Source: Cinqassovirus ah1 (taxonomy: Duplodnaviria > Heunggongvirae > Uroviricota > Caudoviricetes > Straboviridae). Taken from it: a stretch of DNA of 64,000 nucleotides. The notes under the pieces are model-generated. The model searched no databases. It saw only the letters and a program-made list of their open reading frames with translations, and had not been told where the DNA came from. Where the stretch lies: positions 12,650 to 76,649 of the IMG/VR virus record IMGVR_UViG_2974724611_000001; one strand, given 5' to 3'. Below, in pieces: positions 5,314 through 53,082 of the stretch; position 1 is the stretch's first letter, and every line of letters starts with the position of its first letter. A program made the position numbers and the translations under genes.

Positions 5314-6279
5314 TTATTTCCACTCCATTTCCATACTGAGATCAGCAAGTAGATCAAACAGATGAATTTCCATGTTCGGAATACCGTTAGCGTATTTCTG
5401 ATTTTCGGCGATAAGCTTGATCATCACACGCAGAGAAGTCGGTTTAACTTCAACGAAAAGACGCTCATACAGTTTGGTGATAAAGCTATCGTAATCAACG
5501 GTAAACTTCGGAACAAGCGAACGAACATCACCGAGCTTTTTAGACTTGAGCATGGTAACAACGTCGTTCATATCTTCGGTTGCTTGCGTGGCTTTAGTCA
5601 AAACACCTTCATCGATCTTACCTGATTTTGCATAACTATCAAGCATTGTGATAGTGCCACGCAGATCAGGGAAGTTTTGTTTCACAAGAGCAGCGATAGC
5701 TTTACGAGATTCTACTACAACTCCTTCCATTTCGCAAATGGTTTCACACCGTACGATCATTTCTTTCATCATGCGGAGCTTGTCGTCCGCGGTAGGATTA
5801 CCGAATTCAATCTGACGGAATCGAGATTTCAGTGGACCGGGAATAGCTTCTACGTTGTTGCAAGTCATGATAACAGAACAGTTCGAGCTAAACGCTTCCA
5901 TCCAAGAACGGAGTTCTTCATGAACAGCTTTCATGCCCTTGTTATCGCCTTCATCGATGATGATAACTTTGCCACCCGGCTTACGAGTCATGGTAGACGC
6001 AAACGCGGTCAGGTCATTACGCAGATCATCGATACGCAGTTTACCACCAGAGATAAACATAACTTCGGCATCGATCTCATTACAAAGAACCCGTGCCATT
6101 GTAGTTTTGCCAGTACCGGGGCTTTTGGAGAACAGCAGGATGTGGGGGATTCTGCCGGTCGCAACGATACCTTTGAAACGCTCGATATCAGCAGACGGAA
6201 GAATACATTCGGAAATCAATGCGGGACGGTACTTTTGTTCCCACATAAACTCTTTTGGATCGGTGATAGTCACAGTCAT
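5314..6279 (-). CDS. 44: Clamp-loader large subunit gp44 (AAA+)
   Basis: EQKYRP, the Walker A motif SPGTGKTT, IIDEGD and SNCSVIMTCNN are all collinear with T4 gp44. Confidence 0.95.
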   Translation of the reverse strand: MTVTITDPKEFMWEQKYRPALISECILPSADIERFKGIVATGRIPHILLFSKSPGTGKTTMARVLCNEIDAEVMFISGGKLRIDDLRNDLTAFASTMTRKPGGKVIIIDEGDNKGMKAVHEELRSWMEAFSSNCSVIMTCNNVEAIPGPLKSRFRQIEFGNPTADDKLRMMKEMIVRCETICEMEGVVVESRKAIAALVKQNFPDLRGTITMLDSYAKSGKIDEGVLTKATQATEDMNDVVTMLKSKKLGDVRSLVPKFTVDYDSFITKLYERLFVEVKPTSLRVMIKLIAENQKYANGIPNMEIHLFDLLADLSMEMEWK

Positions 6280-6372
6280 TTTATATGTCTCTCAGTGCAT
6301 GGGTAAAACAGTTTGGAATAACTAGCATTCAAAACTATTCTAAAGTGGGGAGGTTGCCCTCCCCGACAGTTA

Positions 6373-7050
6373 TTAAGCAGTGTACTTGGATTTGGAGTCA
6401 ATTGCAATGATATAGCTTGCAGTTGCACCCTTGAAACAGATTGCTCCTTCTTTTGCGATCATCACGGTATATTTGCCGTCGATCATCTTCATGTTACCAA
6501 TCGCAACGATGAAATCAAAAGTAGCGTCGTCTCCTTCGAAGTCATCAGCAATAGCAATCTCAAAGCTGTTGGAGTTGCTTTCGCCGCCGGTCAGACGAGC
6601 GATAATCTTACGACCGTCGTTGACAAAGTGCAGATCTACCAGGGACATAGTAGAGGCAGATTTGTCGATTTGTTTCAGTTGCTCGGCAGTAATCTCGAAC
6701 ACAACGGAAGCAGTTGGCATGGTCAGTGCTTTCTTCGGATGTGCGATAGTACCGGCTTCTGCCATTTTGATTTTTGCCATAGCTTTGCCACCGGATGCAT
6801 TCTTGATAGTGATATATTCACCGTCTTCGGTAACATCAGCAGGCAGACCAACCATCGCAGCAACACCCAAGAATTCACCGAGGCTGTAGATTCGCAGCTC
6901 GCTATCTACGGTATCTTTGATGGTGCTTTCGGCATACAGAACGTTGTTCACGCTCTTGGTGTTGACGAAAGTACCCGGTTTCAGTACCACAGACGGGTTA
7001 ATTTTTGCGAAGTTAGACAGGATTTCTACGGTTTCTTTGCTCAGTTGCAT
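6373..7050 (-). CDS. 45: Sliding clamp gp45
   Basis: 225 aa. MQLSKETVEILSNFAKINPSV aligns with T4 gp45 MKLSKDTTALLKNFATINSGI. Confidence 0.93.
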   Translation of the reverse strand: MQLSKETVEILSNFAKINPSVVLKPGTFVNTKSVNNVLYAESTIKDTVDSELRIYSLGEFLGVAAMVGLPADVTEDGEYITIKNASGGKAMAKIKMAEAGTIAHPKKALTMPTASVVFEITAEQLKQIDKSASTMSLVDLHFVNDGRKIIARLTGGESNSNSFEIAIADDFEGDDATFDFIVAIGNMKMIDGKYTVMIAKEGAICFKGATASYIIAIDSKSKYTA

Positions 7051-7719: not shown

Positions 7720-10027
7720 TCTCCACCATCGTAGTAAAGCGACCTTGCTTATGCATACGAATGTGGCGATTGAAACTGTCATCCATAGCGTCTTTACGAT
7801 GCGAGATAACAATTATGTTGGACTTCATACTATCCAGCATTTTGTTGATTCCAACGATACCCATTTCATCACAGGATCCGTCGAACACTTCGTCCATGCA
7901 TAGCAGGTTGATATTAACTCCACTAATCATACTGCTAACATCGCGCCATGTAAACAACAAACTGAGGTTGATTCTCGCTTTCTCACCTTCTGAGAAGGAA
8001 GCATAACAGAAATCTTCTCTACCACGAGATTTGATAGATTCGTTGAATCCTTCATCAAGCGCAAACACATAGTCGGCACCCAATGCTTTCAAATACTCGT
8101 TGATCTTCTTGTTAAACACAGGGATATATCGTTTAACAATGTGCGCTTTCACGCCGTTGTCTTTCAACATATCGGCAACAATTGAACGATGATGAAGTTC
8201 AAGAACAATCTTAGCGATCTCGTCCTTCAACTCATTAGCTCGTTTAAGTGCTGCATCAACTTGAGAACGATCATACTCGGTAGCTTTCAAGTCGTCAATC
8301 TGTTTTTTCAAGTTTCTTGCGTTTTCTGCGGTAGTCTCATAGGACTCGGTACCAGTAGCGATACTAGCTTTCAACGCTTCCACATTCGCTTTGTATTGTG
8401 CAACAGCCAGATTGTGTTTTGCAACACGTTCCGACTTCAAACGTTCAACTTCGTCTTCCAACTGAGACAGGCGATCTTCCAATTCGGCTTTGTTGTCTTT
8501 GAAACTGTCAATAGCCCAACGTTTTTCGTCTTCGAGTTTGCGCATATTGCGATCATACTCGATTACCTGATTTGCGTGACTCAGGCGCATTTCCTCGATC
8601 TCTCGATCAATTCGACGGATCTCGGCTTCGTGCTGTTCGCTGATAGTACGACACTGATAGGCATAATCTGCCGTCTGCTTTTCGTACTCACGGCGTTTAC
8701 GCTCGTTTTCGTCAACAGTTGCCCGATATGCTTTGAGATCAATTTCGTATTGCTGTTCCTGTGCAGTCAGATCGGAAATAATCTGTTCTTGCTCAGAAAT
8801 TTTAACATCAAAACTAGCGATTTCGTTATCGATTTCGGCAATGCGATCATGAGAATGCGTAGAGCAATCGGTGCCGCAAGTTGGACACTCACCACCTTTC
8901 TCAAAAAATTCTCGACGTCCAACGAGCTGGCGCTTATCCAGTTCGAATGCCATCTTTAGCTGATTAGCTAGTTTCAGTTCTTCGCGAACGTTCACCACAG
9001 TCGGCTCAGACGCTTCCACGTACACCGGTTCCTCGGGAATAGGAACAGCGGCAGTCTTGTCAATCAGATCTTCTTGAGTTGGCTTAGAATCGCGCAACAT
9101 CATTTCGTCATGATCCAATGCACATTCATGAGGCTGATCCAAACGCAGCATAGCAATCTTGGATTGAATCTCGTCCAACTCTTCTTTGTGGGAAGATTGG
9201 AGTTCATCAATCTGAGAATTCAGATTAGCGCGTTTGTCTTCAACTTCTTGTGAATCGTCCTGCTCAATATACTCTGGCTCTACCAGAGATTCAAGCTCAT
9301 TTTTATTTTTGGCAACACTTTCTTTAAACGCTTTCGCCTGATCTACCAACGAACGGAAGTTAGTGGTGAACATAGCGATCATGTTATCAGTCTGTTTTTG
9401 TTGCGCGGTAATCGACGCTTCGGCAGTTTGCTGTTCGCTTTCCGCGGAAGCTAGTTTTACGCGCAAAAGTTCAAGCTCGCCCTTCTTCTCTTTGATGATC
9501 CCTTTGTTGATCTTGTCCATGTCGCCTATAACGGAAACATCCAGAAGATCTTCAACGAGTTCGCGACGCTTACCAGCAGGCAGTTCCATGAACGGCTTAT
9601 ATCCAGCAGTGCCAAGAACGATGATCTGCTTGAAACTGTCGTAACTGATACCAAGCAACTCGTTTTCAAAATACGATTGATATTCCGTCGCGCTTGCAAC
9701 TTCTTTCAGCGGCTCGCCGTTCTTTGTGATTTTAAGAATGTTAGGCTTGATACCGCGCTCGATATGATAGCGATCTTTACCAACACTCAATTCACCTTCA
9801 ACATGGAGACCCTTCTTGTTCTGAGAGTTCACCAGTTGCGCTTTTGTTACATCACGAAACGCTTTGCCATAAAGCAGGAAAGTAAGTGCTTCGATAAAAG
9901 TAGACTTACCCGCGCCGTTAGTGCCAGTGACAAGCGTTTTCTTGTGTTCGTCAAGAGTGACGCGAATTGCCTTCGCGCCAACTGACATAATATTCTGGTA
10001 TTTTACCCAGTGAAATGAAATATCCAT
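7709..10027 (-). CDS. 46: Recombination endonuclease subunit gp46 (Rad50/SbcC-like), with an expanded coiled-coil
   Basis: MDISFHWVKYQNIMSVG aligns with T4 MKNFKLNRVKYKNIMSVG. Carries Walker A GTNGAGKST and the C-terminal signature SFSEGEKAR...LCMDEVFDG. 772 aa versus 560 aa in T4. Its start overlaps the gp47 stop (TAATG). Confidence 0.9.
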   Translation of the reverse strand: MDISFHWVKYQNIMSVGAKAIRVTLDEHKKTLVTGTNGAGKSTFIEALTFLLYGKAFRDVTKAQLVNSQNKKGLHVEGELSVGKDRYHIERGIKPNILKITKNGEPLKEVASATEYQSYFENELLGISYDSFKQIIVLGTAGYKPFMELPAGKRRELVEDLLDVSVIGDMDKINKGIIKEKKGELELLRVKLASAESEQQTAEASITAQQKQTDNMIAMFTTNFRSLVDQAKAFKESVAKNKNELESLVEPEYIEQDDSQEVEDKRANLNSQIDELQSSHKEELDEIQSKIAMLRLDQPHECALDHDEMMLRDSKPTQEDLIDKTAAVPIPEEPVYVEASEPTVVNVREELKLANQLKMAFELDKRQLVGRREFFEKGGECPTCGTDCSTHSHDRIAEIDNEIASFDVKISEQEQIISDLTAQEQQYEIDLKAYRATVDENERKRREYEKQTADYAYQCRTISEQHEAEIRRIDREIEEMRLSHANQVIEYDRNMRKLEDEKRWAIDSFKDNKAELEDRLSQLEDEVERLKSERVAKHNLAVAQYKANVEALKASIATGTESYETTAENARNLKKQIDDLKATEYDRSQVDAALKRANELKDEIAKIVLELHHRSIVADMLKDNGVKAHIVKRYIPVFNKKINEYLKALGADYVFALDEGFNESIKSRGREDFCYASFSEGEKARINLSLLFTWRDVSSMISGVNINLLCMDEVFDGSCDEMGIVGINKMLDSMKSNIIVISHRKDAMDDSFNRHIRMHKQGRFTTMVENVR

Positions 10028-11843: not shown

Positions 11844-12239
11844 TCATAACCTAATTATGGCACACTTTATTTGAATAGTAAACAAAAGCCACCCGAAGGT
11901 GGCTATATTTATTAAAACATCTTCGCTATTTGTTGGATCGAGATATGGAACACCAGCTTCAATTTTTAACACATACGTGATATTTGTTGCTGTATCCAGA
12001 ATTTCATCCTGCTTAATTGCTTCTTCAACGAGTTTATCACCGACAACAACGCGACGCTTGCCGTCATTCGTTGCTGGTTTAGCGAGAGCTCCTACCATAT
12101 CGGCAGTATAGTCGCCAGCTTGCGGAAGAACGTTACCGTTTCTGTTATTGAACGACGAAACGTTAGCAGGCTTAGTACCCTCTGCCAAAATACCAGCAAC
12201 TCGTGGGTGTAAATTTTTGGATTTTAAACTGAGTGCCAA
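11844..12239 (-). CDS. Hypothetical protein (TTG start; 3' end reads through a terminator hairpin)
   Basis: 131-aa ORF with no in-frame ATG. The coding sequence runs through the GCCACC-UUCG-GGUGGC hairpin at 11884-11903. Confidence 0.3.
   Translation of the reverse strand: MALSLKSKNLHPRVAGILAEGTKPANVSSFNNRNGNVLPQAGDYTADMVGALAKPATNDGKRRVVVGDKLVEEAIKQDEILDTATNITYVLKIEAGVPYLDPTNSEDVLINIATFGWLLFTIQIKCAIIRL
11884..11903 (-). terminator. UUCG-tetraloop hairpin terminator (identical stem to 11246-11261)
   Basis: aaaagccacccgaaggtggc followed by a T-rich tract on the minus strand. Confidence 0.45.
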
Positions 12240-12344
12240 CAGGAATACCAGTAGCAGCGTTCAGAGGAATCCATGCTTTACCAACAATCACGTTTGGGAT
12301 TGTCTGCCATTTTAAATCTCCTATGTTTTATGTTATTTAACAAA

Positions 12345-36595: not shown

Positions 36596-36603
36596 CTACG
36601 ATA

Positions 36604-36816
36604 TCACAAATGTATTCTGAATCTTTGGCGATTACTTCGCCGTTCTACTTCGAGTTTGCCGTTGGTAGCACTCATTGGGACTTCCAGCTTTTCTTTCAGA
36701 TACGCTTTAAGTTGTTCCAGTATATCTGAACTCAAACTGTTGTCAACTGATTTTTCCACAATTTTTATGCTCTTTACATTGCGTTGTTGTGTAGCCGTCA
36801 AACACAGAACGAGCAC
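36604..36816 (-). CDS. Hypothetical protein (probably shorter, GTG start near 36765)
   Basis: The track ORF overlaps the HAD gene 3' end by 74 nt. An internal GTG start would reduce the overlap to about 17 nt. Confidence 0.3.
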   Translation of the reverse strand: MLVLCLTATQQRNVKSIKIVEKSVDNSLSSDILEQLKAYLKEKLEVPMSATNGKLEVERRSNRQRFRIHL

Positions 36817-37233
36817 GATAATAGTCCTTAGCTGTGAATCCGTTCACACTATCAACGTGAATGAAATTTTGCTTTTGTGACTCCAACATGTCGTCGTCAT
36901 CGTCAACAATCACATAATTCTCACATTCTTGATGTTTGTTCAGCCACTCTTGAATCAACTCTCCGCGATTTTCACCAACAAGATCTCTTGTTTTGAAATC
37001 CTCATGTAAGCATTCGGGAGGGAATCCTGCCATAGCAAGTTGATCCTTCACCATCTGCAAATCACATCCAAGTCTCCAAGTGCTACTGTATACCACTTTC
37101 AAACCGTAGTCAACGATTAGTTGGATAAAAGCTTTACAGCTCCTATGTCTACCATTTGTCCGTATTTCAAGTAACTGCTATCGCTATGAAATACTCCGTC
37201 AACATCGAGAAACAATACACGGCATTTTTTCAT
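36743..37233 (-). pseudogene. HAD-superfamily phosphatase disrupted by a -1 frameshift
   Basis: Frame A, 37233-37117: MKKCRVLFLDVDGVFHSDSSYLKYGQMVDIGAVKLLSN, stop. This carries HAD motif I (DxDG). Frame B, 37177-36743, continues ...CKAFIQLIVDYGLKVVYSSTWRLG...YVIVDDDDDM (motifs II-IV). The frame-A ATG overlaps the upstream TGA as ATGA. Confidence 0.55.
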
Positions 37234-38477
37234 ACGTCAAGAGTCCACATCGTATCTTTCAGCCAATCTGGATACTTTCTACCGTCGCTGGTGTCAGTCT
37301 CGTCTAATGTGTTGCAATAAGCGATTTGATTTTCGATTTGAGTTCGGTATTCCTCTCCCAAAATCTTCACCAATCGCTCTATGGCAGCGTTTCTATTGTC
37401 CAGCATATACTCACAAGCGTATATACGAGAAACGATTGTACCAGCGTTCTGGCCTGCTTCCAGCATACGTTTCACGATACCTTCGAGTATGTTACCGTCA
37501 CCGCATGAAGGCTCAAAGAAAGTCGAACTGGAATCCGGATCATCTATGTCGGTATGATCCAACATCTGATTTACGAGTTCAATCGGAGTGAAAAACTCGG
37601 CAGTTTTCTTCTGACGATCTCTATCAATCTTATCGGTAAACATCCTGGTATCACCAACGACTTGCGTTTTGTGACGCTTACCGCCATAGTAATCTTCGAT
37701 TACTTCTGGAACCCTAGATTTGATATCAAGCATATCGAATTTTTCGAATAGCTCGTCATCTGTCCAACGCTTCGTCATGTCTACCCATGGAATTGCATGT
37801 AGCTCTCCACTATCTAGGTGAACATTCATCTTATACAGAGAAAGCATGAATCTTGCAAAGTCCGTTTTCAGATAAGCAATAAAATTCTCTGCCTCTTCTA
37901 ATGTCTTGAATGCGAAATTAGTGCCACGTTTAGGCATTTCCGTAGTTGGAATGTAGTCAACTGGGAACATGGTAAAGAAGTCTGAATTAAAGCGTTTGCC
38001 AGCTTCTGGCGGGTGTCCTCTAACACTTGCTATAGTGACGTAGTGACTCGCATCACTAACTTCACCAGAGCAGGCATGATGCGCTACAGACTGAATTGGA
38101 AATCTGTCATACAGTTTAACACACCAATCGCCAATCATATTCAGACGATTGATAGGCAGTCTAGCGTCATAGTAGCCAGACACATTAATCAGACCAGCTT
38201 TCATTGTTTTGTCAATAACGGTTATACTAAGCGGAGTCAAAAACCCGGCTTTGAAAACGGCATTACCGTCAAACAGATGAACACTTGTTGTATATGTTTT
38301 CATGTTGTCGAGTAGTTCGGCAACTCGTTTTGTTTGTCGCGTTGGCTTTCTGTTAATAAAAGGTCCAGACGGATGCACAGCGATAGTAACATCACATTTC
38401 TTTACACCTAAGTTAACAAAGTCAACGTGCAAACCAGCACTATATGGCGGGTTTGCAATCATATAATCAAAGTGCAT
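37230..38477 (-). CDS. Beta-class N6-adenine DNA methyltransferase
   Basis: 415 aa. Motif IV NPPY at the N-terminus (MIANPPYSAG), then C-terminal motif X FFTP and motif I FFEPSCGDGN. Confidence 0.7.
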   Translation of the reverse strand: MHFDYMIANPPYSAGLHVDFVNLGVKKCDVTIAVHPSGPFINRKPTRQTKRVAELLDNMKTYTTSVHLFDGNAVFKAGFLTPLSITVIDKTMKAGLINVSGYYDARLPINRLNMIGDWCVKLYDRFPIQSVAHHACSGEVSDASHYVTIASVRGHPPEAGKRFNSDFFTMFPVDYIPTTEMPKRGTNFAFKTLEEAENFIAYLKTDFARFMLSLYKMNVHLDSGELHAIPWVDMTKRWTDDELFEKFDMLDIKSRVPEVIEDYYGGKRHKTQVVGDTRMFTDKIDRDRQKKTAEFFTPIELVNQMLDHTDIDDPDSSSTFFEPSCGDGNILEGIVKRMLEAGQNAGTIVSRIYACEYMLDNRNAAIERLVKILGEEYRTQIENQIAYCNTLDETDTSDGRKYPDWLKDTMWTLDV

Positions 38478-39162
38478 GAGTGCTCAGACGTTCTCCGTAT
38501 TCGCGATCCATGCCGTATTCTTTTGCTATCTTCATAATAGCGATGTTCATTTTTACCAGCTTATCACGTTCCACGATGTAATCATTCATCATTACATCGA
38601 GTTCATGAGATTGGCGACGTCTGATCTCCGATTCAATTTGTTTGATTTGAAGTTTCAAGATATCGGTAGAAACTTCTTTGATATCCTTTTCCACTTTAGC
38701 AATGATCTCCGGTTTCTGTTGCTTAGGCTGTTTTTGTAGCAGATCGATTTTGCGCTCAGGAATTCGAACGTTCATCTTGAATCCATATTCGGTGCGCTTT
38801 GCTGCGAAAGGAGAAAATGCTTTCATTTGTTCGATCATTTTGTCCACAATCGACTGACTACCACGGCTGAACTCAAACTCAACGATATTAACAACGATGC
38901 CTTCGCCAAGTTTCGTTACATTAACACCCATCAACTCCGGGCACTGACCGTCTTCAATATACGCGCCAAACAATTCGTTTAGATGCGCTTTGCTGAATGA
39001 GCGGCTACCGATCATCGATTCTGTATAGCGTCTGATGTTTTTGCGGAACTTCGCTGGGTCGATATCGACTTTAGTTCCAGCTGGCTTGGAATGGGTTTCG
39101 CAAGCAATATTCAGGAATTTGTACCACTGATTACGCGCAACTAGCTTCCGTTTTTCGTTCAT
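38467..39162 (-). CDS. Hypothetical protein with a C-terminal coiled coil
   Basis: Start at MNEKRKLVARN with a GGAGATATC SD. Confidence 0.5.
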   Translation of the reverse strand: MNEKRKLVARNQWYKFLNIACETHSKPAGTKVDIDPAKFRKNIRRYTESMIGSRSFSKAHLNELFGAYIEDGQCPELMGVNVTKLGEGIVVNIVEFEFSRGSQSIVDKMIEQMKAFSPFAAKRTEYGFKMNVRIPERKIDLLQKQPKQQKPEIIAKVEKDIKEVSTDILKLQIKQIESEIRRRQSHELDVMMNDYIVERDKLVKMNIAIMKIAKEYGMDREYGERLSTHAL

Positions 39163-39192: not shown

Positions 39193-39391
39193 AAATGTCA
39201 AACAGTGATGCAAGTCCTGGATGCTGTGGGAACTTCACATGTTTGGTGTTTTTGTCAATTGCCAATCCGGTTTGTTTAACAAACGCATCGAACTTTTCTT
39301 TAGAAGCAAAACGAACTTTGATCGTCCGTTTGCCACTCTTCATTTTCTCGATTACGTGTTCCGGTGCGGCATCTGGGTTAACATATGCCAT
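39191..39391 (-). CDS. Hypothetical protein
   Basis: 66-aa ORF. Confidence 0.45.
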   Translation of the reverse strand: MAYVNPDAAPEHVIEKMKSGKRTIKVRFASKEKFDAFVKQTGLAIDKNTKHVKFPQHPGLASLFDI

Positions 39392-40590
39392 TATTCTTCC
39401 TCGTCGTTAGCGTCTTGTTCGGACGCTTTGATAGATGTTAGCACCATTCCGTATTCATTGCAACCTTCCGGAATAACATTTTTCAGTTTCAGACGATTAG
39501 AACGATACGGTGCATAGTCTACCCAGTGGTGCCAGCGACCGTTCATCCACTGCAATCTGGCAACGTCTGGATGCATGTCCACAATCATTTGCGACTTAGG
39601 CAGAGTACCTTCTTTTGAATAGAAAGCTTCTGTGTTACCGCCTGCCATCGCTTGAGTAACGAGTTTACCAGTCAAGAAAGCGTTATATTGAATCGTGCAA
39701 TGACCGTCTTTCAAAACACGCAGGCTCAAATCGGTATCTTCGTTATAGCGACCTCTCCAACGATACGGGATATCATTGAGAATCAACAGAGTGCTATAAA
39801 TCCGACAGTTTTGAACGAACGGAGGCAACGACTCTTTCGGCACAGCAAAGAAGCGATAATGCGGACCAGCGATATAGACGTTTTCATAACGATCAACGTG
39901 ATCTTCCATAGCACGGAAGATCGCGCCACTGTTAACGATTGTGCGCTTGTTTCCGTCAAGACGGAAGAAGTGTTGTTGGTTATCGTCCATTACCCAGTGA
40001 CGCTTGAACCCCATTTTCATAGAGTGTTCCCAAGCAAAGTTACGAGCAGCGCCTGGACCCTTGCTTCGAGTGTTACCGAGATTATCAAATGTATCATATT
40101 CGTCAAGATATTTCTGATCAAGAATGATAACGGTCACATATTCATGATCAACGCGGCTGTTATATTCTTCGAATTGAGATTCTTCTACAACGATATAATG
40201 CTTGACTTTCATACGCACCAAACTATCGGAAGTCAATCGCTTTTCCCATCGGGATTTTGATACGATGTAAATCGGATATTTTGGCTGATTCAAATCGGTG
40301 TAATCAGATACATACCGAATCACGGAGTAATCGTCTGGACCTTTCTTCGGCCACCAAATGCTCTTTGTCTTGTCACTTAACGGCAAGTCTGCGAGCTTAG
40401 AAAACTCGGCAACATCATCGTTATTATCGAACTCGAATTCAATCTCGGCATAAGCGTCGATGATATCTTTCGGCTCATAGTGTGGCATTTGCTGCCAGTG
40501 GTCCCATGGATTATCTTCGTTGGCATATCGCTCATTGCGATAAATCAAATTGCCATCTAAGTCTCTTGTTTTTTCTACTTGTTTGCGCAT
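39391..40590 (-). CDS. Hypothetical protein, possibly a nucleotide-sugar (GT-A-like) transferase
   Basis: 399 aa with a DxD-like motif (VMDDN). The assignment is weak. Confidence 0.35.
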   Translation of the reverse strand: MRKQVEKTRDLDGNLIYRNERYANEDNPWDHWQQMPHYEPKDIIDAYAEIEFEFDNNDDVAEFSKLADLPLSDKTKSIWWPKKGPDDYSVIRYVSDYTDLNQPKYPIYIVSKSRWEKRLTSDSLVRMKVKHYIVVEESQFEEYNSRVDHEYVTVIILDQKYLDEYDTFDNLGNTRSKGPGAARNFAWEHSMKMGFKRHWVMDDNQQHFFRLDGNKRTIVNSGAIFRAMEDHVDRYENVYIAGPHYRFFAVPKESLPPFVQNCRIYSTLLILNDIPYRWRGRYNEDTDLSLRVLKDGHCTIQYNAFLTGKLVTQAMAGGNTEAFYSKEGTLPKSQMIVDMHPDVARLQWMNGRWHHWVDYAPYRSNRLKLKNVIPEGCNEYGMVLTSIKASEQDANDEEE

Positions 40591-41432: not shown

Positions 41433-42310
41433 TACGCTTCCTTAAAGCTATATTTGTCTAGGATCTGAGTCATGATAGTGATTTTCGGTTGCAAAGTCAA
41501 CATCACTTCATGATATTCCGCGTCTGCTTGTTGTTGTTCAGCGATAGCCATGTCCAGTTGCGCTTGTGCTTGTGCTACCAGTTGTTTAGCAGTTTTCACA
41601 TTAACGGCTTTATTCGAGCGAACACGATCCAGCTTCTGGAGTTCAGCAAATCCTGGCAACACTTTTTCGAGGTCGATATCAAAAACATCTTGACGAACAT
41701 CTTCTTTCTTACTCATTTCGTCCAATGTTTTTGCGTTTTCTTTCCGAGTATCTTTGTACATGATATCGTGTCCAATAGACTTTTTATCGGTACGCGGTAG
41801 ATAATCTTCTCCAACTTTTGACTCAGGAACCGGAATAATGACGCGGCACTTGTATTCGAACGGGTCGCAATGCCACACGCGCATACCAGTTTCACCGTCT
41901 CGAAAACTCCAGTTTTCCATAGAGAAGTGTTTGCCGATTTTAGATTCGAGCAACTTTCTCGGAACTTCGCACTTGAAATAAAGCGCGATTTGGTTTGGAG
42001 AAATTACTCGATACTGCCAACCCGCAGTTTGTAGACCAGGCCACATTGCACCAAGCTTTTCGAACGGACGATATTTGCCGTCGTTGTTATTGTACATAGA
42101 CTTGGTAAACGCGGTATGAGATCCGAACATCCGAATGAATGCGGAACCAATGCGAACGAGATTTGTACTAGAGAACAAGTTACCCTCAAGGATTCGGGTA
42201 CGAGTTTGACCGTCCACAGTCACGTTTTCGCAGAACAGATTTTGTTCCATGCGGATAAGAAAGTTCTTGAATTTCTTATCTTTGAATACTAATTTACGAC
42301 CTTCTTTCAT
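41432..42310 (-). CDS. Hypothetical protein, paralog B
   Basis: 292 aa. FCENVTVDGQTRTRI matches FKNVTVDGKTIRVY in paralog A. Gln/Ala-rich C-terminal coiled coil. Confidence 0.5.
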   Translation of the reverse strand: MKEGRKLVFKDKKFKNFLIRMEQNLFCENVTVDGQTRTRILEGNLFSSTNLVRIGSAFIRMFGSHTAFTKSMYNNNDGKYRPFEKLGAMWPGLQTAGWQYRVISPNQIALYFKCEVPRKLLESKIGKHFSMENWSFRDGETGMRVWHCDPFEYKCRVIIPVPESKVGEDYLPRTDKKSIGHDIMYKDTRKENAKTLDEMSKKEDVRQDVFDIDLEKVLPGFAELQKLDRVRSNKAVNVKTAKQLVAQAQAQLDMAIAEQQQADAEYHEVMLTLQPKITIMTQILDKYSFKEA

Positions 42311-42312
42311 TA

Positions 42313-42537
42313 TTAAGCCTCCGCTTTGATATAGCCAACGATATCAGAGAAAGTAACAGACTCCATACCAACCCCGATTTTATCATTAACACTATACACC
42401 GTGCCATAGTCTTCATCTTCGCGCTGTGATACAATGAAAACCTTGCCGTTTTTCATATGAACTTCCATATCATTCTGATTAGACAGATCCAAGTTGATGT
42501 ATTGAACAGTTTTGATAGCGGAGATTTGAGCCAACAT
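42313..42537 (-). CDS. Hypothetical protein
   Basis: 74-aa ORF preceded by a cassette. Confidence 0.5.
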   Translation of the reverse strand: MLAQISAIKTVQYINLDLSNQNDMEVHMKNGKVFIVSQREDEDYGTVYSVNDKIGVGMESVTFSDIVGYIKAEA

Positions 42538-42600
42538 GGTGTATTCCTCGTTTCGTTTGATGTAGCTATATTATCATATCAATATTCTACGTCAAGCACT
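42537..42600 (-). promoter_or_regulatory. Promoter–leader cassette
   Basis: Minus strand: gaaaaGTGCTTGACgtagaatattgatatgaTAATATagctacatcaaacgaaacGAGGAATACACCATG. Confidence 0.4.
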
Positions 42601-43115
42601 TTTCTAGCGTGATCCACATTTTTTACACATCGGATTAGTTCACCAATCTTGTCTTTCTTGATAACAAGCGTAGTAAAGTCGCCGTCGCTATTCATATCAA
42701 AGATTATGTTTTGTTTTGAAGTTCTAACACCAAGCCGAGAGTTCTTGATCTTCATTCTGCCAACTTGTATGTTAGCTGATTTAAATCTGGACTCGGTAAC
42801 AATAGAATCAGAACGTTTCATGAAATTAACAAATCGATCATGATCCTCTCGCTTAGGCAACTGGAACCAAACTTTCTTATTGAAATTCTCAGTTACCTCC
42901 ATAACAGTCGTATGATCTTTGATATAAAAAGAGATTGTATAAAACTGATTTACACATACACCAGAACAAGCAACGACTTCCTTATTACCGGCGTTTAGTC
43001 TTGAATAGAACTCTTGGTCACTCACAATAGCAGCGTTGGCAGATGTTACTGCCAACGCGATTGCAAGATTACTCCAGAGATTCGTCGCATTCTTCATACA
43101 GAACGGATTCATCAC
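42579..43115 (-). CDS. Secreted/periplasmic protein (signal peptide)
   Basis: Signal peptide: MKNATNLWSNLAIALAVTSANA-AIV. Confidence 0.5.
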   Translation of the reverse strand: MMNPFCMKNATNLWSNLAIALAVTSANAAIVSDQEFYSRLNAGNKEVVACSGVCVNQFYTISFYIKDHTTVMEVTENFNKKVWFQLPKREDHDRFVNFMKRSDSIVTESRFKSANIQVGRMKIKNSRLGVRTSKQNIIFDMNSDGDFTTLVIKKDKIGELIRCVKNVDHARKVLDVEY

Positions 43116-43395
43116 AGATTACCTCGTCTTCATTGGTACCGTCTTCTACTTGATCCGCAGTGCTATTCTGCATAGCATTCATGAGCATCATAGTAGTTAC
43201 TACGTTAGAAGCAGTGTTGGTGTGAACGGCTGCATTGCTCACAGTAGCAGGACGAGACACCGGAGCACTAACAGGACGCGATACAGTCATCGGTCGGCTG
43301 ATAGTCATAGGACGACTCATACTAATAGCGGCATTAGCAAATTCAACAACACACAGGCCAGCAAACATCATAACAGCAATAACAGATTTTTTCAT
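43069..43395 (-). CDS. Secreted protein with SRP(M/V)T(I/V)S repeats
   Basis: Start at MKKSVIAVMMFAGL (signal peptide). Repeats SRPMTISRPMTVSRPVSAPVSRPATVS; acidic C-terminus. Confidence 0.5.
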   Translation of the reverse strand: MKKSVIAVMMFAGLCVVEFANAAISMSRPMTISRPMTVSRPVSAPVSRPATVSNAAVHTNTASNVVTTMMLMNAMQNSTADQVEDGTNEDEVICDESVLYEECDESLE

Positions 43396-43509
43396 TTGAA
43401 CCCCAGAAATATTACACACAAAAACATCATAAACATTTGAATAAACGTTTCCACTTTCTTAATTCTCTTGCCAGAATTCTAAGAAAGTGGGGACAATCCC
43501 CACCCGTTT

Positions 43510-43776
43510 TTAATCTACTTTTCTGATAACGTAATGATAGCCAAGCATTTTCAGTTTATTTTCGAAGTTGCACCCTTTCTTGAAATCACCGTCGATTGTG
43601 TGAATCGCGTTGTAACCAATAACATGTCCTACTTTAGAACGAATCGGCTCAATGGTCATGATTGCACCTGCCATAGACAGTTTGAAATCAGCGGTGATAT
43701 CGATGTAACGTGCAGTCGGAACAACAACAGTAAACACATATTTCATAACAATCTCCTCATCAGAAAGTGGAGTCAT
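43510..43776 (-). CDS. Hypothetical protein
   Basis: 88-aa ORF behind a cassette. Confidence 0.5.
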   Translation of the reverse strand: MTPLSDEEIVMKYVFTVVVPTARYIDITADFKLSMAGAIMTIEPIRSKVGHVIGYNAIHTIDGDFKKGCNFENKLKMLGYHYVIRKVD

Positions 43777-43830
43777 TATCTATGGATTACCAACAGCCGT
43801 CAACAACTTTTTATCGAAAATCCGAAACTT
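43774..43830 (-). promoter_or_regulatory. Early promoter–leader cassette
   Basis: Minus strand: aaagttGTTGACggctgttggtaatccaTAGATAatgactccactttctgatGAGGAGATTGTTATG. Confidence 0.4.
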
Positions 43831-44353
43831 TTGACTGATTCACGCTTTGATCTTGTTCTACCGCGGCATTCATCTGAGAGCAGCCTTGCAGCATCATATA
43901 AGGATTGGTATGCATTAGATTAGAACCAATCGCAACTCCTTCCTCGAATCCAGCTTGAACTTTAGCGGCATCATAGTTCGGATTCTTTTTCGCTTCTTCA
44001 ATCATTCGAGTTCGGAACACGTTGTAATAAGCATTGTTGCTCATACGCGCTTGGGCACACTTACTGGTAATTCCAAGACCGCGACCGATGTTATATGAGA
44101 ATGATTCGGCTTCTTGCTTGGCAATATTATCATCGATTCGCTTTTGATCTTCTACTGCCCAAGCTTTATACTCAGCTTCTTGTTTGTTGCGGATCTCGCG
44201 CTCTTGCAAATTGATAGCCAGTTGCTTGTCTTGCTCTTCCAATTGCTTGAGATAAACTACCTGTTGGTGTTGAGCGTCGATATCATACTGATCGGACGGC
44301 ATAGAAGCGCAACCAGTCAACATAAGTCCAGCGAGAATAATCAAACGTTTCAT
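43811..44353 (-). CDS. Lipoprotein
   Basis: Signal peptide plus lipobox: MKRLIILAGLMLTGC. Confidence 0.6.
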   Translation of the reverse strand: MKRLIILAGLMLTGCASMPSDQYDIDAQHQQVVYLKQLEEQDKQLAINLQEREIRNKQEAEYKAWAVEDQKRIDDNIAKQEAESFSYNIGRGLGITSKCAQARMSNNAYYNVFRTRMIEEAKKNPNYDAAKVQAGFEEGVAIGSNLMHTNPYMMLQGCSQMNAAVEQDQSVNQSKVSDFR

Positions 44354-44673
44354 TTTGCACCTACACAGTTAGCGAAACTACGAAAATTCACGTTATCAAG
44401 TTCTACCATAACGCGATCATTTTTCAACACAACATCTTGGCCGGATTTGCTTGCGATCTCTTCTTTACTCATTTCAAAGAATACATGAGTCGGATCAACC
44501 GGATTAAACGGGTCGGTACCATAATCAGTAACAGCTACACCAGATTTGGTGCCAACAGTTGCATACGAAATCAGGGTATGGCTTTCTTTGTCATGTTTAA
44601 CAAAAGTCTGGCACTCAATATGAGCAGCATTTACACTGATAGAAAACAAAGCAAGGATAATCAATTTTTTCAT
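44350..44673 (-). CDS. Secreted protein
   Basis: Start at MKKLIILALFSISVNA (signal peptide). Confidence 0.5.
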   Translation of the reverse strand: MKKLIILALFSISVNAAHIECQTFVKHDKESHTLISYATVGTKSGVAVTDYGTDPFNPVDPTHVFFEMSKEEIASKSGQDVVLKNDRVMVELDNVNFRSFANCVGAK

Positions 44674-52630: not shown

Positions 52631-53082
52631 TTAAACACCGTTATGATAGTTGATAACGTATTCTTTCAGCTCTTGATAAAAAGCCTGATACTCGATAGCG
52701 CGAATAATGTCCTTCGGACCAACACCCTTCAAACGTCTTATATCGCTATTGTGTCGGAGATCGCTCATTTTGATGTAGACAGAACGAATGTCGGACTTGA
52801 CTCGTTGCTTGTAAGAATCCATACTTTCGCCCTTGATCTTACTCACATTTTGAACAAGTTGAACGGCTTCTAGCTCATGCCGTTAGAGATCAAGAGATCT
52901 CGTCCACCTTCGATATCTTCAATGATATCATGAGCCAACGCTGCCTGTTTAGTAGCTTCGTCAGCACACTCCGGAAGACCCTCCATAACCGCCAAGCAGT
53001 GTTCGAAATAGGGACGTCCACCTTTGTCGTTAGTTTCCGAGAAAGCAGTTGCTACCAGTGCGTACAGTTTAGCTAAAGTCAT
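52631..53082 (-). pseudogene. Small alarmone hydrolase (RelA/SpoT-type HD-domain (p)ppGpp hydrolase) split by a -1 frameshift
   Basis: ORF 53082-52870 carries the HD half: GGRPYFEHCLAVMEG...AALAHDIIEDIEGG, then a stop. ORF 52846-52631 (reading frame open from 52882) continues ...ELEAVQLVQNVSKIK...YIKMSDLRHNSDIRRL, the KLADRLHNMRT-like motif. Confidence 0.55.

Follow-up and report, generated by a model that had tools for sequence, protein, structure and literature searches.

A one-base loss that splits a HAD-family phosphatase gene in the Aeromonas phage Ah1 record is probably an error of the deposited sequence

Main finding

In the deposited genome of the T4-like Aeromonas phage Ah1 (MG250483.1; RefSeq copy NC_055733.1), a gene for a phosphatase of the haloacid dehalogenase (HAD) superfamily is divided between two reading frames, one A of codon 38 being absent. 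The interruption is likely to be an error in MG250483.1, the gene of the phage being ordinary and intact, as judged from uninterrupted orthologues, from selection past the lesion and from the recurrence of this type of lesion in genes of the record that the phage cannot do without. According to this explanation, one base of a short run was under-called, AAA being read as AA at positions 37122-37121 of the window (the whole stretch of 64,000 nucleotides analysed here), and the under-call would shift the frame at codon 38 straight into a TAA stop. The phage itself would then have the gene whole: 163 codons specifying a small capless HAD_SAK_2 phosphatase, with a start ATG that shares bases with the stop codon of a methyltransferase-like gene upstream. 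A first-pass annotation of the DNA had described the enzyme as apparently inactivated, naming a one-base assembly or sequencing error as the observation that would overturn this reading; on our analysis, such an error is the most probable explanation.

A single missing A divides the gene in the Ah1 record

Window positions correspond to those of MG250483.1 minus 12,649, on the same strand. A megablast search with window positions 36600-37400 recovered MG250483.1 itself (100%), Ah1 being a Cinqassovirus of the Straboviridae, followed by avDM12-TAAL (93.8%), Aeh1 (92.4%) and PX29/AsFcp (~79%), with 9 phage records in all matching the HAD locus. The genes in this part of the Ah1 genome lie on the minus strand. 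Delimited by ORFs, three-frame translation, a four-way DNA alignment and Pfam, the whole HAD_SAK_2 phosphatase gene spans 36743..37233 (minus strand) and measures 491 nt in the Ah1 record, compared with 492 nt (163 codons plus stop) in avDM12-TAAL, Aeh1 and a contig from the Logan assemblies, and 489 nt in PX29.

The N-terminal fragment (37117..37233, minus strand), identified from ORFs and translation and annotated in GenBank as Ah1_00076, starts with the ATG at 37233, reads MKKCRVLFLDVDGVFHSDSSYLKYGQMVDIGAVKLLSN* and ends after 38 codons at a TAA stop (37119-37117). It contains HAD motif I, D10-V-D12-G-V (37206-37192, minus strand). The C-terminal 125 codons and stop (36743..37120, minus strand) are found by translation in the -1 frame, which stays open from 37177 until a stop at 36745-36743 and yields ...LIVDYGLKVVYSSTWR...VIVDDDDDM..., with motif II S50-S51-T52 at 37087-37079 and motif IV D111-D115 at 36904-36890 (both minus strand). 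The GenBank coding sequence Ah1_00075 covers 36743-37033 only, begun at an internal ATG. Neither a second stop nor an indel was found in the C-terminal -1 frame by translation and alignment with the relatives. The -1 interruption reported by the first-pass annotation, with a stop after 38 codons and a -1 frame open from 37177, is therefore present in the deposited sequence, and since the frame change parts motif I, in the 38-residue piece, from motifs II-IV, the lesion, if real, would leave a dead enzyme.

DNA alignments place the lesion at 37121..37122 (minus strand), where Ah1 has AA and four relatives have AAA (codon K38). The relatives read TCC AAA CTA ATC GTT (S-K-L-I-V) and Ah1 reads TCC AAC TAA TCG, so that the TAA stop at codon 38 is the direct product of the loss of a single A; on the plus strand, the missing base is a T at 37123, TTT having become TT. 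The deposited allele with AA reads TCCAACTAA, and this is the sole gap inside the Ah1 gene in the four-way DNA alignment. Across the junction, the protein of the relatives reads ...AVKLLSKLIVDY..., and the repaired Ah1 protein continues ...AVKLLSKLIVDYGLK.... The splice proposed earlier, 'AVK-AFIQLIV', was slightly misplaced: 'AFIQ' is out-of-frame read-through, and the true junction is at K38. Exact-match scans of IMG/VR returned neither the deleted allele (GCTTTTATCCAACTAATCGTTGAC) nor the intact one (…CCAAACTAA…), and so do not help to decide between them. The 38-aa product has no record in public assemblies, where ORFs this short probably go uncalled.

The two-frame layout could in principle be a programmed one, with the full-length enzyme arising near 37122 by ribosomal frameshifting to -1 or by transcriptional slippage; the frames do share ~60 nt (37177-37117), and conservation of the downstream one is complete. 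Against this stands the sequence of the overlap zone. The earlier statement that the zone lacks a slippery heptamer holds, since no in-frame X XXY YYZ occurs between 37233 and 37100 and the lone heptamer is off-frame at the start codon; the accompanying statement that it lacks a homopolymer is only roughly right, as the lesion itself falls within a brief stretch of As and a T4 run is found close by at 37130-37127. To judge from the codons involved, tRNA-Asn on AAC would be unable to re-pair on CAA, and the A-run of 2 bases is far too short for polymerase (transcriptional) slippage. The 93 nt downstream have a minimum free energy of -17.6 kcal/mol compared with a shuffle mean of -17.6 (z = -0.01), that is, no structure. 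Above all, the layout is not conserved, the gene being single-frame in avDM12, Aeh1, PX29 and the Logan contig, and this non-conservation essentially refutes recoding as read from sequence comparison, leaving it a very low probability.

The repaired protein is a HAD_SAK_2 phosphatase

The joined protein matches the Pfam profile PF18143 (HAD_SAK_2) with 80.3 bits (cut-off 27.5; E = 2e-22) over profile positions 1-138 of 139, and a match to the whole profile implies that the two ORFs are not a chance pair. Together with the match of the repaired protein to phrog_1818 (E = 6e-47) and the presence of PF18143 in all 30 homologues, this upholds the initial assignment to the HAD phosphatases: the gene encodes a typical representative of a phage HAD phosphatase family (PF18143, phrog_1818) that has yet to be characterised, its motif I falling in the first fragment and its motifs II-IV in the other.

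The catalytic positions are conserved throughout the alignment of 31 sequences. In motif I (F8-L9-D10-V-D12-G13-V14), which follows strand E4-9 of the structural model, D10 and D12 are invariant; in motif II, which comes after strand E45-49, S50 and S51 are invariant and T52 nearly so; and in motif IV, which closes strand E104-111, the same is true of D111 and D112. R90, likewise invariant, is a candidate motif III by its position in the alignment and in the model. The predicted catalytic set would thus comprise D10/D12 as nucleophile and acid, S50-T52, the basic R90 and the metal-binding pair D111/D112. An AlphaFold2 model of the repaired protein (pLDDT 89, pTM 0.85) consists of alternating strands and helices, and its top Foldseek matches in the PDB are HAD phosphatases, with probabilities of 0.96-0.99, weak E-values (5e-3 to 2e-2), TM-scores of 0.42-0.52 and 14-18% identity. 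These matches, the phosphatase domain of T4 polynucleotide kinase/phosphatase (PDB 2ia5), MDP-1 (1u7p) and AQ2171 (2p9j), have a Rossmann-like HAD core like that of the Ah1 model; the likeness to 2ia5 is one of fold class only and not of membership in the PNKP family, Ah1 having its own PseT elsewhere. A search of PDB sequences with the repaired protein gave only spurious low-complexity matches (Knr4/SMI1 via DDDDD, E ~0.03).

Fold class and catalytic motifs, as predicted from the model and the alignment, support a small capless HAD-superfamily enzyme, which we infer to be a phosphomonoesterase; its substrate may be a polynucleotide 3'-phosphate or a nucleotide. The DxD, S/T and DD motifs of PF18143 ('HAD domain in Swiss Army Knife RNA repair proteins') are common to the Ah1 protein, but whereas the namesakes of the family carry the domain within a multidomain repair protein, in Ah1 HAD_SAK_2 is a stand-alone protein of 163 aa. 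The suggestion that the two ORFs form no gene at all and resemble HAD motifs by chance, for which nothing speaks except the shortness of the fragments, is refuted by the full-length Pfam match at 80 bits, the phrog_1818 match, the 30 homologues that all carry PF18143, the strong purifying selection on the gene and the confident AlphaFold model with its HAD-like fold, and we give it practically no weight.

Relatives carry an intact gene under purifying selection

Comparison with orthologues, which the first-pass annotation had proposed as a check, showed four relatives with DNA identities of 97%, 94%, 92% and 79%, all with an uninterrupted gene of 162-163 codons and AAA where Ah1 has AA. In avDM12-TAAL, Aeh1 and PX29 the gene is a single frame of 163, 163 and 162 codons, respectively, located as in Ah1 and likewise with an ATGA overlap; their products (UYD60322.1, Aeh1ORF083c [AAQ17744.1] and PX29p082) are orthologous hypothetical proteins with the same HAD motifs, encoded ATGA behind a 415-aa methyltransferase-like gene, and differ from the Ah1 case in being uninterrupted where the Ah1 gene is without one A in codon 38. 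The closest of the four, an independent relative reached through the protein search, is the Logan contig from run SRR9330608 (38.6 kb): along 13 kb it has 97.3% identity with the window, and it retains the base. Its protein, which has the Ah1-specific G44, matches the repaired Ah1 protein at 99% identity. The Aeh1 and PX29-type proteins are 96% and 85% identical to the repaired Ah1 protein, respectively, and that of avDM12 differs from it at 3 of 163 residues.

With the missing base restored, dN/dS was calculated by the Nei-Gojobori method over codons 38-163. Between Ah1 and avDM12 the value past the lesion was 0.08 (11 synonymous and 4 non-synonymous differences), between Ah1 and Aeh1 it was 0.06, and between avDM12 and Aeh1, both intact, it was also 0.06. 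The changes past the lesion that are specific to Ah1 comprise 8 synonymous ones and two non-synonymous codons (N44G and D74E). The downstream frame is fully under purifying selection along the Ah1 lineage, with no sign of relaxation in Ah1 (dN/dS of 0.08, equal to that of intact pairs), and this means that the lesion is either extremely young or unreal.

The first of these options amounts to a real, very recent loss of function, in which the isolate or laboratory stock lost one A, makes only the 38-residue peptide and does without the phosphatase on its propagation host. The lesion does stand in the sole Ah1 sequence, and the gene is accessory, being missing from most T4-like phages, with only the 9 records mentioned above matching the locus, so that a real knockout would be viable; the complete PseT polynucleotide kinase/3'-phosphatase of Ah1 may moreover make the enzyme redundant, and an adjoining small gene carries a genuine-looking 11-nt deletion. 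However, the unrelaxed constraint past the lesion demands an event of extreme youth, all four of the relatives are intact, the same lesion type is found in gp23, gp8 and gp54 of the same record, where it is unreal, and such events are no commoner in accessory genes than in essential ones. A recent knockout is accordingly rather unlikely, albeit the most credible of the alternatives; if the HAD lesion alone were real, the phosphatase would be shown to be dispensable.

The same lesion type breaks essential genes of the Ah1 record

A genome-wide census of the Ah1 record (positions 12,650-221,116) against avDM12, interpreted through the avDM12 annotation, found ~16 annotated Ah1 genes broken by isolated 1-nt indels in a highly identical context. 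Deletions account for ~14 of the 16, and nearly all are in runs of 2-6 identical bases. The reverse situation, with Ah1 intact and avDM12 broken, was encountered in at most 1-2 ambiguous cases. At least 8 virion genes are affected, namely those for gp23 (lesion at 146708 of MG250483.1), gp8 (122578), gp54 (two losses, at 108442 and 108447), a gp48-like cap protein (110951), the baseplate hub (112741), fibritin (wac, 131048), gp13 (135109) and a gp35-like fibre protein (204351); the other broken genes are Alt, five hypotheticals, one more that is affected at its C-terminus, and the HAD gene. By a rough count, the structural modules (~62 kb) contain 9-11 events and the rest of the sequence 6-7; with no excess of indels in accessory genes by this count, real mutations are not needed as an explanation.

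Base-by-base alignment shows what the lesions look like in the genes for virion proteins. In gp23, one C is missing (GAAGC[C]AACATC) relative to both avDM12 (99.4% identical over 1.75 kb) and Aeh1, and in gp8 one C is missing (CTAG[C]CGTG) relative to avDM12, which is ~99% identical and keeps gp23, gp8, gp54 and gp48 intact. Both MG250483.1 and NC_055733.1 annotate the broken genes as pairs: 23_1/23_2 (major head protein), 8_1/8_2 and 54_1/54_2 (both baseplate), and wac_1/wac_2. The halves of these split genes, two coding sequences each, have ~97-100% protein identity to the intact avDM12 gene, and each gene has lost one base from a short run, the same type of lesion as in the HAD gene. Most other lesions of Ah1 shorten GG to G or CC to C; that of the HAD gene, AAA to AA, differs in this respect, which is a point against the error explanation.

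As is established for T4 morphogenesis, no plaque-forming T4-like phage is possible without its major capsid protein (gp23) or its baseplate wedge. As gp23 is indispensable and yet broken, the Ah1 record must carry systematic base under-calls. In the split genes 23, 8, 54 and wac, which are indispensable, the lesions must be artefacts, whereas for the accessory HAD gene membership in the same error class is something we infer from these lesions in essential genes. The apparent inactivation claimed in the first-pass annotation is hence hard to maintain: one-base losses of the same kind break gp23, gp8, gp54, gp48, the hub, gp13 and fibritin in the record, and selection on the HAD gene is unrelaxed. 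One could suppose instead that the ~16 losses, including those in gp23, gp8 and gp54, are all real in the DNA and that the phage restores the frames after replication, a route that may involve, for example, bases added to the transcripts without a template, or frameshifting that is efficient and site-specific although its sites are non-canonical. Recoding would in that case operate across the whole genome, with the HAD gene as one of the genes it serves; we assign this scenario a negligible probability.

A separate census, of indels within the window, was made against Aeh1 and avDM12 in genes intact in both. The Aeh1ORF101c homologue proved to have lost single bases at two window positions, 47870 and 47879 (GG to G and CC to C), and that of Aeh1ORF110c one base at 52873 (GG to G); there were also a 1-nt gain (T4 to T5, at 12218) together with a 2-nt loss (at 12307) in that of Aeh1ORF028c. 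These indels probably belong to the same error class as the HAD lesion. Apparent frame switches at ~31505, ~56780 and ~6280, which had emerged from a stop-to-stop ORF census, are upstream of the annotated starts of the relatives and were set aside as intergenic indels; likewise, plus-strand 'split ORFs' in the indel censuses proved to be antisense shadows of the same indels.

Independently of this work, an analysis of the Tevenvirinae pan-genome left out Ah1 because the reading frame of one of its core head-assembly genes is shifted (PMC8056088). In the literature, the accession MG250483 was not found mentioned, and 'Aeromonas phage Ah1' is named only in that study. With ~16 genes split by 1-nt indels in MG250483.1/NC_055733.1, the value of the present result is mainly one of quality control: 'pseudogene', 'split gene' and 'frameshift' calls that derive from MG250483.1 are suspect, and at least 3 further cases lie inside the window.

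Genomic neighbourhood of the HAD gene

The HAD start codon and the stop codon of the upstream gene share an ATGA overlap (37230..37233, minus strand, from ORF coordinates), the TGA of the 415-codon gene being overlapped by the HAD ATG. The upstream gene (37230..38477, minus strand), which belongs to the context and lies outside the lesion, encodes a methyltransferase-like protein of 415 aa with NPPY at residues 9-12 and EPSCGDG near residue 307. Its profile matches comprise N6_Mtase (19.8 bits, just under the cut-off of 20.4), phrog_11371 and the DNA methyltransferase family phrog_21201 (E = 2e-42). The order of its motifs is permuted, NPPY being N-terminal and the SAM-binding-like EPSCGDG lying near the C-terminus. 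The coupling to a methyltransferase gene described at first sight is thus borne out by the ATGA overlap, NPPY at 9-12, the weak N6_Mtase match and phrog_21201.

The 'nucleotide-metabolism theme' once proposed for the surroundings is a loose description, as the neighbours, a methyltransferase-like protein and a TET-associated glycosyltransferase (PF20691), point to DNA modification. The glycosyltransferase (399 aa; 39391-40590, minus strand; PF20691, E = 9e-45; phrog_842) is encoded four genes upstream of the HAD gene, and a 231-aa protein matching phrog_20146 is encoded at 38467-39162 (minus strand). These two genes and that of the methyltransferase-like protein may form a DNA-modification cluster upstream of the HAD gene. 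In Aeh1, the product of ORF087c is listed as presumably modifying DNA with an unknown base (PMC8056088). The overlap with a methyltransferase-like gene near a TET-associated glycosyltransferase offers a mild lead on DNA modification in Aeh1-like phages, and it does so independently of the frameshift. In three distant homologue contigs, a methyltransferase-like gene was never called beside the HAD gene, so that gene context lends no firm support to a functional link between the two.

In one of these three, a 73.6-kb phage contig of the Logan assemblies (SRR14489481), a stand-alone HAD_SAK_2 gene (6001-6477) lies ~2 kb from a region (8108-9993) that encodes an AAA_33 kinase and an RNA ligase (PF09414). 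It is as if the parts of a polynucleotide kinase/phosphatase had been distributed over separate genes, a hint that the family may act as 3'-phosphatases.

Downstream of the HAD gene, 11 nt are absent from Ah1 at 36644 (CAAGCTGAATT in Aeh1 and CAAGCTGGACT in avDM12; also present in the Logan contig from SRR9330608). Their loss breaks a small minus-strand gene running from 36595 to ~36790, the homologue of Aeh1ORF082c, which lies directly downstream of the HAD gene and has no Ah1 coding sequence annotated in its place. Unlike the 1-nt losses, this one looks like a genuine deletion, and, being unlike a base-calling error and 480 nt downstream, it may reflect genuine gene decay near the HAD gene.

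A further split annotation concerns Aeh1, in which nrdA is annotated as nrdA-A and nrdA-B around the homing-endonuclease gene mobE (record positions 41489-44628; L005 21490-24629); in avDM12, nrdA is annotated as a single gene.
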